Shown here one piece after another: positions 21,994 to 29,852 of a DNA stretch of 32,000 bases. The position numbers and the translations under genes are program-made. The DNA is from Candidatus Saccharimonadota bacterium (GTDB taxonomy: Bacteria > Patescibacteriota > Gracilibacteria > BD1-5 > UBA6164), in the NCBI GenBank assembly GCA_004563595.2, contig CP042461.1:810001-842000 (forward strand), given 5' to 3'. The notes beneath the pieces are model-generated. The model saw only the letters and a program-made list of their open reading frames with translations. It made no database searches and was not told the origin of the DNA. Each line of letters opens with the position of its first letter. Position 1 is the stretch's first letter.

Positions 21994-24834
21994 TTATAAC
22001 TCATCAAACTTCTCCAATAATTCAGTCATTTTAGTTTTAATTCTTTCTATAACTGTTTTCCTCTCAATAAGCTTAGGTTTCACTATCATAGTTTTAGCTA
22101 TATCATCACTTAAAGGAATTTTTCAAGTATATACATAATCTCATATAACATGTTCTAGTTTACTTGGATCTATATTTTCTTCTTTACAGAATTGTTCAAA
22201 TTCTTTTAATTTCTCATTATTCATATATTTTTCAAATTCACTACTTATAAGTGAAGTATCTTTAATATTTCATAGATATTCATCCATAAACTTTTGAATA
22301 AGTTCTTTTTTGCTTCTCAATTGTATATCTCAAGAAATCATATCAATAATATTTTTCTTTTGTTTCTCTTTCTCTTCATCATTCGTTTCAACGAGAGTAG
22401 CGAGTAATCATAAAATATAATCTATATTTATTTCATCTTTTTGTAATAATTCTAATTCAAAATCTATATCATCAAGTATAGATACTTTTTCTTTTCCGTG
22501 GTCTACTTTTACTTTATCATAGATATCCCAATATTTAGAACTATAGTCAGCAAATGTTTGTTCATCTATGTCTAATTTACTAAAATCAAAATCAACAAAT
22601 GATTCTAAAATATTTTTTAATCTTAATAAGTTTCTAAATGCTTGAACAAATCTATATTGTTCTTCTTCACTTATAATATCATCTACATTATCAGGACTAG
22701 GAGCTATATCTTGTAAAGTATCTAGAGTTTCATTAAAATATTTTACATATTTTTCTAAAGGTTCCATTAATATAACATCCTTAGCATCTTTATTTGAAAA
22801 TAATTTAATAGCATCATCAACATTATCTTTCAGATTTCTAAAACAAACAATATTTCATTGTGATTTATGTTCGTTTAAAATTCTATTTGTTCTACTGAAT
22901 GCTTGGATTAATCCATGATACTTTAAATTTTTATCTACATACAAAGTATTTAAAGTTTTACTATCAAATCAAGTTAAAAACATATTTACTACAATAAGTA
23001 TATCAATTCTTCTTTCTTTAACTTTCTTAGCTATATCATTATAATAATTATAGAAACTCTTCGTATCACGAGTTGAGAACTTAGTTCAATACATTTTATT
23101 ATAATCGACTATGAATTCATCTAGTTTATCTCTTGTATGTTTATTTTCTTCTCATGGTTTCACTTCTATTTGAACGTCATCTAATATTCAATCAGCATCA
23201 AGATCTTCTTCATTTGTTCAATATGAGAATATAGTAGCAATCTTTAAATTATGATCTTTTCTTTTAAATGATTCATAATATTTAATAAGTGTATCTACAT
23301 TACTTACACAAAACATAGCAGTAAATGATTTTGAATGTGTTTTAGAATTATGGATATTTAATATATAATCTGTAACTTTATCTAATCTTTCAGGACTTTC
23401 AAAGATTTCACTTGTATTTATATCTTCAACTTTTTCATCACTCGATAATTCAAAACCTTTTTTTGTTTTAAAAGTATTTATATACTCAATAGAAAATTTT
23501 AATACATTTTCATCTCTAATTGCATCTGTAATAACATATTTATGTAAACAATCTCAAAATAAATCTGCTGTTGTTCTTCATTTGTTATTATTTTCAGCTA
23601 ATATTGGAGTTCAAGTAAAACCAAACATTTGATGGTTATTGAAAAATTTCACTATTCTATCATGAGTATCTCAAAATTGACTTCTATGACATTCATCAAA
23701 TATAAAAACAACTTTTTCATCTTTTAAAAGTTCCATTTTGTTCAGATATTTCTCTTTTGAAATAGCTGTATTTAGTTTTTGTATAGTGGTAACAATGAGA
23801 GGTGTCGTATCTGAAAATTGTTTTACGAGTTGAGTTGTGTTATCAGTTCCATCAATACTCCCCTCTGAAAAACTATTAAATTCTTTAGTTGTTTGATAAT
23901 CAAGGTCTTTTCTATCAACTACAAAGACTACTTTCTTCACTTCTGGTAGATATCTGAGTATTTGGCTTGTTTTAAATGAGGTTAAAGTCTTTCAACTTCA
24001 AGTTGTATGCCAAATATATCAATTTTTATCAGAATTTTTAACTCTATCAATAATCTTTTCAACAGCATAATATTGATATGGTCTTAAAACCATTAATACG
24101 TTATCAGCTTCACTTAAAACAATATATTTAGTTATCATTTTAGATAAATGACAAGGTTCTAAAAAGACATTCGTAAAATCATCGAGTTTAGTAATATTTT
24201 TATTATCTTCATCAGCCCAAAAGAAAGTTTGTTTAAATGAATCTCTTTTTCAATTAATATAATTTTTTGTATTTGAAAAGTATTTTGTATTTACTCAATT
24301 ACTAATTACAAATATTTGAATATATTTAAATAATCCATGTCCAGACCAAAAGCTATGTTTATGATACCTCCCTATCTGATTAAATGCTTCTTTTAATTCA
24401 AGTCATCTTCTTTTTAATTCAATAGCAACGAGAGGGAGTCAATTTATAAGTAAAGTTACATCATATCTATTTTCATAACTTCATTCCATAGTTATCTGAT
24501 TGGTAACTTGGAATTCGTTTTGACACCAAGCATTAGAATTTATAAATTCAATATGAATTTTATCTCCACTATCTAGTTCAAGAGGCATTTTATCTCTCAA
24601 AATTTTAGCCCTTTCAAAAACATTTCATTTATCTAAATGATTTAAAACTCTTTTAAACTCTTTTTCTGATAAGTCTTTTCAGTTTAGTTTATCAAAATTA
24701 TGAATTTCAATTTGTTTTTTAAGATTTTCAAGTAAATCTTTTTCATCTTTAATAGTTACAAAGTCATATTCAAGACCTTGTAATTGAGAGATGAGGTTAT
24801 TTTCAAGCTGTGCTTCTGATTGGATTTTGTTCAT
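21994..24834 (-). CDS. hsdR: Type I restriction enzyme R subunit HsdR, 946 aa
   Basis: ATG 24834 to TAA 21994-21996; I scanned every triplet and found no TAA or TAG. About 25 TGA are read as Gly. The nuclease motif region is [21 protein letters not shown]. Helicase motif I is written HTT-TGA-S-TGA-KT (about 23985-24005). Motif II is [11 protein letters not shown]. Other motifs are GFTGTPI and QAFSRTNR. The C-terminus is a helical HsdR_C region. Confidence 0.95.
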
Positions 24835-24861
24835 GCTATAGTTATTTTTATAAAGTTACTT

Positions 24862-26169
24862 TTATTTATTAATAATTTTTGCTAAATCAATTATTTTATC
24901 AACTGGTAAATTGATTTCTTTGTCAGGATAAACTTTATCAAAGACTACATTTGCAACATTATCGTAAAATCTCCCTTTATCCATATCTTTTCATGTATCT
25001 GATCTTATTGCAGAAAATCAATGTAATAATGCAATTTTATTACTGTTTTCTATTCTAAGTTTTTTAGATTTTGAATATTGATAAATTGAAAAATAAAGAA
25101 AAGATGATAATAAAATTCATAATGGCAATAAAATAAATTTTAAATCTCAAGTAAGTATTGAATTTTCAGGCTCAGGAATTAAATATAAAATATTTGTCAA
25201 AAAAATAGAAAAAAGAAGAATAATTCAAAAATCTAATAATACCTTTTTAAATATATGAAAAGAATTAAAAATTAATATTCATATATTTTTAAATAATATT
25301 TTAAAATTTTTTAAGGTTTTGACATAAAGAGACGACTTTTTATTTTTATATAATTTTATATATTCTTTTCTTTTAATTTTATAACCATCTCATTTAGTAA
25401 ATATTCATATAATTGTTCCTATTATTAGTCATATAATTGCAATTAAAATAATTATTAATATTTTAGGCATATATTTAAAAGCAATTATATCTAAAATTGG
25501 TACAAATAAATATAAAAATAATCCAAAAAATATCATAAAAGAAATTAGAAGCCATCTTTTTTCTTCAAGTAAAAATTGTTCTTCTAGTTTTTCAAAACTT
25601 TGAGTTAGTATATTGGTTTGTTTATCAGATGTACTTTTTATAACTTCATTTTTTTTCTTAACAACTGTTTTTAATTTTTTATTTTCTTCCTCTAATTTCT
25701 TTTTTTCTTGGTATTTATTATAATCATCATCTGTAAGAATTATATTATTTAATTGTTCTTGAGAAAAAATATTAGTATTATAATCGGCTCATCTAAAATC
25801 CGCCCCTTCTAAAATAGCTCATTTAAAGTTAATATTTCATAATTTTATATTTCTAAAATCAGATTCTTCTAAATCTGAATTTTTGAAAGAAAAAGCCCCA
25901 TTATATCATATTGAATCAATTCAATTTTCGAAAATTGATCCTGAAAAAAGACTAAATTGTAAATTTCTATTTTCAAAAATAGTATTAATAATATTATTTG
26001 TTTTTTCATTTTCAGTATCCTTTCATTGAATCCAATTTCAGAAATAATATCAACTAAAATCATTATCTAAATTTTTAGCTCACCTTAAAAGAAGAAGATG
26101 ATTTTTTATTTTTTCCTCTATTTCCTCTTGTGTTATAAAAAGCAATTCTTGTTCCTTCTTTTTTACCAT
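24862..26169 (-). CDS. Pentapeptide-repeat / coiled-coil / multi-pass (about 4 TM) membrane protein embedded between hsdS and hsdR, 435 aa
   Basis: ATG 26169 (16 nt after the hsdS stop) to TAA 24862-24864 (27 nt before the hsdR ATG); I scanned all 435 triplets and found no TAA or TAG. Residues ~75-135 are pentapeptide repeats: NRNLQFSLFSGSIFENGIDSIGYNGAFSFKNSDLEESDFRNIKLGNINFKGAILEGADFRGADYN. A K/E-rich coiled coil follows. The hydrophobic helices are WLLISFMIFFGLFLYLFVPIL, ILIIILIAIIGLIIGTIIGIF, FGIILLFSIFLTNILYLI and FILLPLGILLSSFLYFSIY. A soluble tail of about 60 aa ends the protein. The track ORF 25869..26063 is in the wrong frame. Confidence 0.85.
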
Positions 26170-28267: not shown

Positions 28268-28271
28268 TTCC

Positions 28272-29852
28272 CTAAAACGGACTCTTAATCCCCAACTCAT
28301 CACAATATCACTTAATCTTTTCATCTAAACTTTTACTCTCTTTATCCAAATCAATTATCTTATTAGCCACTTCTTCTAAATCTATTTCATCCTCTTCTTC
28401 AAAAGTATCTACATACCTTGGAATATTTAAATTGAAATCATTTTCTTTTATTTCATCTAAACTTGCCATATAACTATATTTATCTTCTGTTTTTCTTTCT
28501 GAGAAAGTATTAATTATTTTATCTATATCTGAATTTCTTAATTTATTTTGATTTTTAACTTTTTCAAAATGATTTGATGAATCTATAAATAAAACATTAT
28601 CAGGATTTTCTCTACATTTTTTGAATACTAAAATACAAGTAGGAATCGAAGTCCCATAAAAAATATTAGCTGGTAATCAAATAACAGTATCTAGGTAATT
28701 CCTATCTTCTATTAGATATTTTCTAATATGTCATTCAGCTCCTCATCTAAATAACACTCAATGTGGAACAACTACAGCCATAGTTCAATTATCATCAAGT
28801 TGATGAATCATATGTTGAATAAAAGCATAATCAGCCTTTGAAGTAGGTGGTAATTTACCGTATTGACTAAATCTATCATCACTCATGAAAAGTGGACTCG
28901 CTGACCATTTTGCTGAAAAAGGAGGATTTGCAACAATAGCTTCAAATCTTTTTTCTAAATGATGTGGATGTTCAAGTGTATCATCTAACTTTATATCAAA
29001 ATTCTTATAATTCACATCATGCAAAGTCATATTCATTCTTGCAAGATTATAAGTAGTTCTATTCATTTCTTGTCAAAAAAATTCTCATACTTTATCTACT
29101 TGCTTCGCAACTCTTAGCAACAAACTTCAAGAACCACAAGTTGGGTCATATACTGATTTTAATTGTTTTTTACCACTCGTTACTAATTTTGCTAATATTG
29201 TTGAAACCTGTTGAGGTGTATAAAATTCTCATGCTTTCTTCCCAGCTCAACTCGCAAATTGTGCTATTAAATATTCATAAGCATCTCACAGTACATCTGT
29301 TTCTATATTTTCTAATTCAAAGTCTATTTTATCAAGATGTCATAATACTTTAGATATTAATTCATTTTTTTGAGCCGAAGTTTTACCTAATTTTTGAGAA
29401 GTTAAATCTAAATCAGAAAATAAATCATCAAAATCATCTTCACTTTCAGTTCCCATTGTAGAAGACTCAATATTCTTTAATATTTTAGTTAAATCATCTA
29501 TTATAAAATTGTCATCAGTATTTTCACTTACTGAATTTCATTTTTTAGTTATCTCACTAAAAAGTTCCCTTGGTTTTAAAAAATAACCTAAATCTTCAAC
29601 TGAATTTTCTTTTATAGCTTCTATTAAATCTTTTTCATAATTATCACTTTCATTTAGTTCGTTATATGATTTTTTATATCAATCTTCATTTAATAGTTTA
29701 TTAGCTTTTAAGACAATCTTTTCAGATAAATATTTATAAAAGATAAACCCTAAAATATAATCCCTAAATTGGTCTGCATCCATTTTTCATCTTAAAGTAT
29801 CAGCTATATTCCAAAGTTGTCTTTCTAATTGTTGTTTTTGTTCTTCTGACAT
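28272..29852 (-). CDS. hsdM: Type I R-M N6-adenine DNA methyltransferase subunit HsdM, 526 aa
   Basis: ATG 29852 to TAG 28272-28274; I scanned every triplet and found no TAA or TAG. About 16 TGA are read as Gly. The HsdM_N region is LWNIADTLRGKMDADQFRDYILGFIFYKYLS. Other motifs are GEFYTPQQV and motif I VYDPTCGSGSLLL. The catalytic motif IV is IVANPPFS. The pattern GTMAVVVPHGVLFRGGAEG.IRKYL is also present. Confidence 0.95.

Follow-up and report, generated by a model that had tools for sequence, protein, structure and literature searches.

Organization of the locus and its genetic code

The subject of this report is a 32,000-nt stretch of contig CP042461.1 (hereafter the window), derived from a bacterium of the Gracilibacteria lineage, in which the genes of a type I restriction-modification (R-M) system are interspersed with two genes of other kinds. 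On the minus strand the order is hsdM, a 103-nt spacer (spacer 1), a gene encoding a MazF-like protein, a 177-nt spacer (spacer 2), hsdS, a 16-nt gap, a gene encoding a pentapeptide-repeat protein with about four transmembrane (TM) helices (PRP-TM), a 27-nt gap, and hsdR. Our analysis centers on the MazF-like gene and on a predicted small RNA (sRNA) of spacer 2, which converges on the 3′ end of this gene and accompanies it in related genomes.

The window has a GC content of ~27%, and gene calling with translation table 11 produced fragmented open reading frames (ORFs) throughout it. With TAA and TAG as the only stop codons, ORFs of at least 100 amino acids (aa) total 41 kb (overlapping frames counted), compared with 7 kb under table 11. 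Since TGA falls on conserved glycines, such as those at aa 279 and 281 in the Walker A motif (GSGKT) of HsdR, the genetic code of this bacterium was assigned as code 25.

The three hsd genes are all encoded by the minus strand. HsdM (28272-29852; 526 aa) matches the Pfam families N6_Mtase (PF02384; 2.3e-114) and HsdM_N (PF12161; 2.9e-19), and the PADLOC model MTase_I (5e-165). HsdS (26186-27412; 408 aa) has two target-recognition domains, with two stretches matching Methylase_S (PF01420; 3.3e-34) and end-to-end matches to the PADLOC Specificity_I models (6e-92). HsdR (21994-24834; 946 aa; PADLOC REase_I, 1066 bits) is composed of HSDR_N, SWI2_SNF2, T1R_D3-like and EcoR124_C domains, which span aa 5-943 and include the Walker A motif and the ...ELK nuclease motif. 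With full-length domain sets in all three subunits, the system is predicted to be an intact type IC (EcoR124-like) R-M system. The exact public-database matches of the two inserted genes are proteins of Candidatus Gracilibacteria bacterium 28_42_T64, named "pentapeptide repeat-containing protein" and "type II toxin-antitoxin system PemK/MazF family toxin". The paper describing the source genome notes only "a restriction modification system" (PMC6851277).

A scan of the sequence revealed no terminator-like sites of the minus strand inside the five-gene unit, and the T-runs of the hairpins in both spacers were located on the plus strand. In these respects, as in gene order, spacers, gaps and strand, a preliminary description of the locus was exact in every detail that could be checked. 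Its reading of the genetic code also agrees with the TGA-encoded conserved glycines and with the long ORFs obtained when only TAA and TAG are stops, and its gene identities were borne out by Pfam (all five genes) and PADLOC (the Hsd subunits). Of the profile searches proposed there for recognizing a defense system, Pfam identified the PemK and pentapeptide domains of the inserts, whereas the PADLOC defense models recognized the three Hsd subunits and neither insert.

Misreading of code 25 is visible in public databases. Many homologs of the inserts (P0002-P0045 set) carry tryptophan where the window has glycine, because they were translated with code 4 instead of code 25, and others end at the first TGA (e.g., the 78-aa P0046). 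Most relatives are consequently missed by back-translated pattern searches.

A MazF/PemK-fold protein with a conserved N-terminal extension

The MazF-like gene (27590-28168, minus strand) encodes a 192-aa putative toxin with a MazF/PemK endoribonuclease fold and a conserved N-terminal extension of 70 aa. Residues 70-167 match the PemK_toxin family (PF02452; 1.3e-12, 48.3 bits against a cut-off of 23.1), and profile matches in the PDB are to MazF/EndoA of B. subtilis and S. aureus (4e-5). Residues R90 (in GIRPSL) and T112 (in IPMTG) align with the catalytic positions of MazF/EndoA, which lie in RPvLV and aITa, respectively; in the family alignment R90 is invariant and T112 is conserved in at least 90% of the sequences. 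An AlphaFold2 (AF2) model of the protein had a predicted local distance difference test (pLDDT) score of 44, too low for use.

The family comprises 19 matches, all with the N-terminal extension, sharing 54-78% identity across Gracilibacteria. The extension is among the best-conserved parts of these proteins and contains an almost invariant motif, HNLxNHIENFKEKIKINQQ. An exhaustive profile search yielded ~20 clusters (at 50% identity) covering the extension, among 614 PemK-like representatives; no relatives of the extension were detected outside the family, nor any match in Pfam or NCBIfam. The possibility that the extension represents a free-standing or fused antitoxin was considered and rejected: the sole candidate match is a 78-aa fragment, whose length fits a code-11 stop at the first TGA (aa 79).

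No mazE/pemI-like antitoxin gene adjoins the MazF-like gene, and no ORF is common to its neighborhoods in at least five contexts (among its upstream neighbors are hsdM, mnmA and an ABC permease gene), so an antitoxin of the MazE/PemI type is absent. Inspection by eye revealed no conserved promoter 5′ of the gene across contexts; the toxin gene of the window is therefore probably read from the hsdM promoter.

A conserved structured RNA convergent with the MazF-like gene

Spacer 2 contains, on the plus strand, a promoter that matches the consensus at 12 of 12 positions (TTGACA-17-TATAAT; 27480-27508), just as the preliminary description had claimed for this spacer. It precedes a predicted structured sRNA of ~87 nt (27513-27599, plus strand), a putative RNA antitoxin, which is convergent with the MazF-like gene and whose U-tail extends over the final 10 nt of that ORF, including the stop codon. 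Sites matching at least 9 of the 12 consensus positions occur at chance level (84 seen, 85 expected); for this reason weight is given to the 12/12 site alone, for which there is conservation across lineages as well.

The element was compared in 10 lineages (the window, L015, L018, L012, L014, L021, L025, L026, L010 and L013). In all of them it lies 3′ of the MazF-like gene, with or without hsd genes, and is preceded by a −10 box (TATAAT in seven, TATACT in two, GATAAT in one), always placed 5 nt before TACTT. The 5′ tail, ACUUUAUU, is conserved and single-stranded in the model. The base of helix 1 (UUGGUC/GAC-CGA) is invariant, including an invariant U·G pair, and its upper stem varies with compensation (TTCATGA/TCATGAA, TCCATAA/TTATGGA, TCTATAAA/TTTATAGA, TTCATAGAT/ATCTATGAA and CTCGT/ACGAG). 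Covariation extends to the terminator helix, and the U-run behind it lies over the toxin gene's stop codon and final codons.

RNAalifold analysis of the 10 lineages gave 19 base pairs, 10 of which show double compensatory changes. Paired cells amount to 96% of the alignment, against 36-49% when the partners were slid, and the covariation score was 0.360 compared with 0.207 in shuffled alignments, none of which (0/500) scored as high. The window copy of the RNA folds with a z-score of −4.8. In an eight-lineage alignment the ratio of G·U pairs to non-pairs was 13/5 when read on the plus strand and 2/16 on the toxin-sense strand, and this asymmetry identifies the plus strand as the one transcribed.

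A covariance model (R1) built from the alignment was searched against 196 kb comprising the window and the related loci. All 13 strong matches (66-100 bits) lie at the 3′ ends of MazF-like genes, and none was found elsewhere in the 196 kb. With the Rfam covariance models, positions 21000-31000 gave only tmRNA at E ≤ 1, leaving the sRNA unmatched; the viral contigs searched contained neither the sRNA motif nor relatives of either inserted gene. On these grounds the pairing of the toxin gene with the sRNA and the structure of the RNA are considered real with high confidence.

In the hsd-linked lineages, the first ~90 nt following the stop codon of the MazF-like gene are conserved above the level of synonymous sites, and a 22-nt block of spacer 2 is invariant, compared with 64-74% identity at third-codon positions. 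In the clade formed by L010 and L013 the TAA stop codon of the toxin gene has changed to GAA, and the ORF reads through the sRNA element (L010, 9556-9636; L013, 1084-1160), adding C-terminal tails of ~20 aa in different frames; these variable tails are seen in the database proteins P0035-P0042. Since the conserved block is translated in different frames in these two lineages, the constraint acts on the nucleic acid and not on the peptide. The predicted overlap between sRNA and ORF is ~10 nt in most lineages and ~66 nt in the L010/L013 clade, and the sRNA would overlap the whole of any read-through transcript.

The placement of the element directly after the stop codon, its near-palindromic hairpins, of which either strand folds, and the behavior of the cassette as a mobile unit would also agree with a cis-acting element in place of an RNA gene, i.e., an insulator or terminator against antisense read-through, a stabilizer of the mRNA 3′ end, or an attC-like recombination site. 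We consider such an element very unlikely, given that the G·U pairs favor the antisense strand, that a fixed −10 box upstream and a U-run downstream are found on the same strand in all lineages, and that the primary sequence is conserved far beyond the needs of a terminator. An integron attC-like site in particular was rejected: the element has two helices with invariant linkers instead of the single long hairpin of R′ and R″ sites, its promoter and U-run are strand-specific, and its G·U pairs are asymmetric.

The Tandem Repeats Finder (TRF) program detected no tandem array of the ToxI type; its only result was an 11-nt repeat present in 3.5 copies, AAAGTTTTGAC (27463-27500, no strand assigned), at the sRNA promoter. 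This repeat spans the −35 region of the sRNA and the upstream region of hsdS, with one unit per approximately one helical turn. The TTGAC(A) boxes that belong to the sRNA promoter fall within it, and it was not noticed in other lineages. It lies back-to-back with the promoter-like site of hsdS, and may serve as an array to which a regulator binds or may supply alternative −35 boxes.

The pentapeptide-repeat membrane protein

PRP-TM (24862-26169, minus strand; 435 aa) is predicted to begin with a pentapeptide β-helix head, from which a long coiled-coil helix leads to ~4 TM helices; its C-terminal segment is highly conserved. The head, with tandem repeats of the A(D/N)LXX type, matches Pfam Pentapeptide (PF00805; 6e-7, 29.4 bits against a cut-off of 20.2), and 20 of 20 family members examined do so as well. 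The AF2 model (pLDDT 73 overall, ~90 in the head) shows a very long helix, ~4 TM helices and a low-confidence tail. Foldseek matched this model to pentapeptide proteins only (MfpA and Qnr at the top), through the head, and found no match for the membrane module.

The best-conserved part of PRP-TM is the last TM helix with the segment that follows it (LRIENxNKxALLHGF...NVVF...NLPxDK). Three relatives (P0024-26) have the coiled-coil, TM and C-terminal module in common and carry unrelated heads, which indicates that the conserved unit is a membrane module with an exchangeable N-terminal domain. The family, with 26 matches, is specific to Gracilibacteria.

The closest homolog (L009; 69% identity) is directly followed by an hsdR gene (82%). 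Homologs at 40-54% identity were located after dnaK (L001, L002 and L004), after a Fic gene (L007 and L008) or after a gene for a 133-aa PemK protein (L005 and L006), and the homolog of L003 precedes genes for an AAA_15/AAA_21 ATPase and an EcoRI-type methylase. Of the seven distinct contexts, five have neighbors of toxin or defense types (two with hsdR and one each with Fic, with PemK, and with AAA_15 plus a methylase); in the remaining two the gene follows dnaK.

Genomic contexts of the inserted genes

The closest homologs of the MazF-like protein (~77% identity) are encoded downstream of hsdM, in L015-17 (HsdM 90% identical) and in L018-20 (HsdM 72-74% identical, hsdS downstream). In other lineages the gene was found (i) after a type III mod/res pair (L012), (ii) before genes for two DNA methylases, a KAP NTPase and a PD-(D/E)XK nuclease (L021), (iii) between murG/tRNA and an AAA_5 (McrB-like) ATPase gene (L026), (iv) between mnmA and an aminoacyl-tRNA synthetase gene (L014), and (v) after an ABC transporter gene in a syntenic PGI/CofD neighborhood (L010, L011 and L013). 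Neighbors of the MazF-like gene and its sRNA (together the cassette) are thus often of restriction type: type I, type III, or methyltransferases, KAP NTPase, AAA_5 and PD-(D/E)XK proteins. A profile search of genome contigs with the MazF-like alignment recovered three loci only, probably because back-translated patterns cannot represent TGA as glycine, and a scan of metagenomes for the sRNA motif likewise gave three loci, one of them duplicating L021.

A distance tree united the three hsd-linked MazF-like copies in one group, the node that holds L018 being unresolved; the recurrence of hsd linkage is therefore most simply explained by one retained ancestral insertion and not by repeated selection. 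The content of the slots between the hsd genes varies among relatives. In L018 an additional 107-aa TM ORF without family match (827-1150) lies between the cassette and hsdS, and in L009 (3-1020) the PRP-TM gene is preceded by genes for two other TM proteins, one of 198 aa and a partial one of 134 aa, neither with a family match; by eye, the tail of the latter resembles the C-terminal module of PRP-TM, of which it may be a paralog.

These data bear on the central claim of the preliminary description, namely that the five genes constitute one composite defense system. In such a system the MazF-like protein and PRP-TM would be latent back-ups, restrained by the type I enzyme and triggered upon its inhibition in the manner of PrrC. 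Several features of the locus are in keeping with it: both inserts are co-oriented with the hsd genes, with no minus-strand terminator between them; the short gaps of 16 and 27 nt around PRP-TM suggest co-transcription with hsdS and hsdR; the hsdM–MazF-like pair has been kept where HsdM diverged to 72-90% identity; PRP-TM, which occupies the hsdS–hsdR slot, remains next to hsdR in L009; and restriction systems recur as neighbors of the cassette. Homologs of both inserts, however, are mostly located outside hsd operons, and the grouping of the hsd-linked MazF-like copies fits one insertion event. No PrrC/RloC domains (ABC-ATPase and anticodon nuclease) were detected in either insert with Pfam, PADLOC or NCBIfam. 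The spacer-2 RNA, too, had been regarded as a component of the operon, whereas the covariance model finds it with the MazF-like gene whatever the neighborhood; as the cassette is accompanied everywhere by its own regulator RNA, it needs no R-M partner. Thus, a survey of the gene order across relatives recovered hsdM–MazF-like and PRP-TM–hsdR pairs, while differing slot contents and the mostly hsd-free homologs speak against a fixed five-gene composite. We regard a single system of this kind as improbable and have low confidence that either insert is functionally coupled to restriction.

A second alternative takes the hsd location of the MazF-like gene as incidental. The protein would then be a lineage-specific RNase, for which the sRNA serves as cofactor, substrate or ribonucleoprotein partner, or which is regulated by its N-terminal domain. 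The high identity of the family across Gracilibacteria, with its almost invariant N-terminal motif, would suit such an enzyme, as would the location of several copies in syntenic housekeeping neighborhoods and the lack of matches in viral contigs; in addition, the invariant nucleotides of the single-stranded segments and helix base suggest specific recognition of the RNA by a protein. On the other hand, the gene–RNA pair often changes its context (tRNA/tmRNA islands, restriction loci), which is typical of mobile toxin-antitoxin (TA) or defense cassettes and not of core genes, and the catalytic Arg and Thr positions of toxic MazF proteins are retained. We therefore judge a non-TA RNase to be unlikely, if somewhat less so than the composite system.

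A further observation concerns the distant PemK gene of L005 (4026-4540; also present in L006). This gene, located just upstream of the PRP-TM homolog, encodes a 133-aa protein with 27% identity to the MazF-like protein. It is followed by a convergent promoter matching at 11 of 12 positions (TTGACT-17-TATAAT) and by a two-hairpin RNA (z = −2.3) near the stop codon, which has no U-run. The covariance model R1 gave no match at this gene. The L005 PemK gene and its convergent RNA may represent a sister toxin–sRNA family.

A genomic island at the 3′ end of the tmRNA gene

The tmRNA gene (ssrA; 29962-30420, minus strand), identified with ARAGORN and Rfam (RF00023, 75.5 bits), lies next to hsdM, and its 3′ end constitutes the predicted integration target of an island. 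A 16-nt direct repeat, CATTAGCTCCACCAAT, is present at 29960-29975 (minus strand), where it consists of the last 14 nt of the tmRNA and the next 2 nt (AT), and an exact copy occurs at 21864-21879 (minus strand). These two repeats bracket exactly the genes from hsdM to hsdR, and thereby delimit an 8.1-kb segment. A third copy with one mismatch (21322-21337, minus strand) bounds a remnant segment of 0.5 kb. Three matches in the same orientation were obtained in none of 100 shuffled sequences.

We conclude that the unit is most probably a genomic island that was inserted at the tmRNA gene's 3′ end, in agreement with the island proposed in the preliminary description. No integrase gene was found in the island, whose content is limited to the five genes, and it is predicted to be immobile or decayed. 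Beyond its ends are genes of housekeeping types, those for SelO, a zinc-type alcohol dehydrogenase family (ADH) protein and a DUF2461 protein on one side, and that for an HD-domain protein (HD_4) on the other. In L015 the hsdM/MazF-like pair adjoins a cold-shock gene instead, and hence the R-M unit has moved. The remnant segment (21338-21865) contains a 131-aa multi-TM ORF (21398-21793) with no Pfam match. The two downstream repeats are alike beyond the 16-nt core, as expected of tandem island remnants.

A comparable arrangement was observed in L026 (~1100-1340), where a duplicated tRNA 3′ end (GAATCCTGCCAGGAGCACCA) lies ~170 nt beyond a tRNA gene and just 5′ of the MazF-like/sRNA cassette and the AAA_5 gene. 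The duplication has the signature of an integration site, and this cassette would be the second one in a tRNA/tmRNA-linked island.

Proposed nature of the toxin–sRNA cassette

The interpretation toward which we lean, with somewhat more confidence than doubt, is that the 8.1-kb ssrA island carries a type IC R-M system, an autonomous PemK/MazF–sRNA cassette and PRP-TM, neither insert being a dedicated subunit of the R-M system. The cassette (~0.75 kb, between hsdM and hsdS) would comprise the MazF-like gene and the convergent sRNA with its sigma-70-type promoter and intrinsic terminator. As a toxin-fold RNase moves between contexts together with an independently promoted convergent RNA, the cassette is best viewed as a TA module with an RNA antitoxin. 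Our confidence that the sRNA is the antitoxin is moderate.

The toxin would be read from the upstream gene (here hsdM), and the sRNA would be made independently. Two modes of action can be envisaged by analogy. The sRNA might pair with the 3′ end of the toxin transcript or its read-through region, as in convergent type I systems of Bacillus, or it might bind the RNase directly, in a manner resembling type III systems. Direct binding is favored, because the invariant helix base and the single-stranded segments exceed the needs of cis-complementarity. Within the island the cassette may stabilize the R-M locus (addiction), provide an abortive back-up, or both. PRP-TM, placed in the slot between hsdS and hsdR as PrrC is, would possibly act at the membrane as an accessory or effector, a role proposed from its context.

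In a bolder form, put forward tentatively and with less confidence than the island interpretation, the extended MazF-like protein and its ~87-nt sRNA would be a previously undescribed TA system, with the layout of type I and recognition resembling type III, that is standard in code-25 Gracilibacteria and prefers restriction loci. With the toxin read from the hsdM promoter, the RNase would then be released when the R-M island is lost or shut off.

Several observations weigh against the cassette being a TA module of this kind. Pairing in trans of the sRNA with the translation-initiation region of the toxin gene was rejected, the z-scores lying between −0.4 and +1.8 in nine lineages. The 10 lineages are related, so that the covariation counts are partly inherited. 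The sRNA transcript and its overlap with the toxin mRNA are predictions from sequence; the toxicity and RNase activity of the MazF-like protein are likewise putative, and its N-terminal extension could be a built-in regulator. The housekeeping neighbors in L010, L011, L013 and L014 would equally fit a non-toxic RNase with an RNA partner. As regards PRP-TM, the accessory or effector role at the membrane is conjecture by association, drawn from its context only.

Comparison with known systems

The classical case of an RNase gene inside an hsd operon is that of PrrC, an anticodon nuclease of the type IC system EcoprrI, whose gene is located between hsdS and hsdR. PrrC and RloC are ABC-ATPase/anticodon-nuclease proteins that are silenced by the R-M protein itself. 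The window resembles EcoprrI in having a type IC hsd operon with a non-R-M gene (here PRP-TM) in the hsdS–hsdR slot and an RNase gene within a type I operon. It differs in that the inserts lack the PrrC/RloC domains, and the RNase has its own RNA and is mostly found away from hsd genes. Other toxin genes are also known from R-M loci: in the pneumococcal tvr locus (SpnIV) the phd-doc pair tvrAT lies between hsdM and hsdR (PMC6265443), and the cod locus contains the SpxA1-TenA TA system (PMC11709252). Given tvrAT, SpxA1-TenA and PrrC as precedents, toxin genes inside R-M operons are already a known category. In the tvr and cod systems both partners are proteins (type II-like), and the pairs are linked to phase-variable hsdS genes and a recombinase, whereas in the window the toxin is of the PemK/MazF fold, has no protein antitoxin, and has a predicted sRNA as its partner.

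Convergent type I TA systems of B. subtilis (txpA/RatA, bsrG/SR4 and bsrE/SR5) offer a comparable layout: their antitoxin is a small RNA, convergently transcribed from a promoter of its own, that overlaps the toxin transcript at its 3′ end, as is predicted here. SymE/SymR and RalR/RalA are type I systems with enzyme toxins, so membrane peptides are not the only toxins of this type. Three differences separate the cassette from the Bacillus systems: the toxin is a soluble 192-aa protein of PemK-family RNase fold and not a small hydrophobic peptide, the overlap with the ORF is mostly only ~10 nt, and the primary sequence of the RNA is conserved far beyond what cis-antisense pairing needs.

In type III TA systems (ToxIN, CptIN, TenpIN and AbiQ/antiQ), often linked to phage defense, an RNase with a Kid/MazF-like fold is neutralized by a structured RNA. 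The cassette shares with them a MazF-like-fold RNase paired with a structured RNA in the absence of a protein antitoxin. Type III antitoxins, which the toxin processes, are encoded as tandem repeat arrays upstream of the toxin gene on the same strand; the RNA described here is single-copy, downstream and convergent, with no repeat array. Moreover, toxins of the ToxN type fall outside PF02452, whereas the MazF-like protein belongs to it. With MazEF, PemIK and Kis-Kid it shares a homologous toxin domain in which Arg and Thr are kept at the catalytic positions, and it departs from these systems in its additional 70-aa N-terminal domain and in having no adjoining mazE/pemI-like gene.

The head of PRP-TM is modeled as a right-handed quadrilateral β-helix of the same repeat family as MfpA, Qnr and AlbG. 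In contrast to these proteins, it is a short head placed on a long helix with a four-TM module, and it is swapped in paralogs. The analyses gave no evidence of DNA mimicry by PRP-TM or of its contact with Hsd proteins.

MazF and PemK are textbook type II toxins, neutralized by proteins. A toxin of this family with a conserved convergent sRNA partner was not found described in Rfam, PADLOC, NCBIfam or the literature searched, and any novelty lies in this pairing, the presence of a toxin gene in an hsd operon being already known. If the interpretation is true, the MazF sequence family would be linked to the world of RNA antitoxins through a clade without protein antitoxins; to our knowledge, this link has so far been based only on the similarity of folds between MazF and ToxN. 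The sRNA would also join the small number of regulatory RNAs defined among bacteria that belong to the candidate phyla radiation, for which we know of almost nothing on RNA regulation or on defense beyond R-M. For genome annotation, the locus indicates that what lies within an hsd operon can be an autonomous cassette and need not be an R-M-coupled effector, and that gene calls with code 11 or code 4 hide or distort these families.

Spacer 1 and other features of the window

Spacer 1 (28169-28271) shows 87% column identity in three hsd-linked lineages. On its plus strand there is a hairpin followed by a T-run, a weak RNA or terminator candidate (~28203-28270), together with a 10/12 promoter-like site. 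On neither strand does the spacer fold significantly better than shuffled sequences (z = −0.8 and −0.9), a single strand-informative substitution was noticed by eye, and the sequence is absent 5′ of MazF-like copies outside hsd contexts. Of the two antisense RNA candidates of the preliminary description, the one in spacer 2 thus proved to be a conserved structured RNA, while that in spacer 1 is weak. Spacer 1 may, on this weak evidence, contain either a further small RNA or a plus-strand terminator that keeps antisense transcription out of hsdM.

A candidate hsdS promoter (TTGACT-18-CATTAT; minus strand, 27462-27433) matches the consensus at 9 of 12 positions, placing it in the class of sites that occur at chance level. 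Transcription of hsdS may come through the sRNA gene or begin at this candidate start.

Elsewhere in the window, and unrelated to the cassette, two large proteins encoded by the minus strand (9601-11835 and 13062-14936) start with a motif like that of type IV pilins, F[TS]L[VI]ELIVVITILAILG; Reg_prop β-propeller repeats are present in the second as well.

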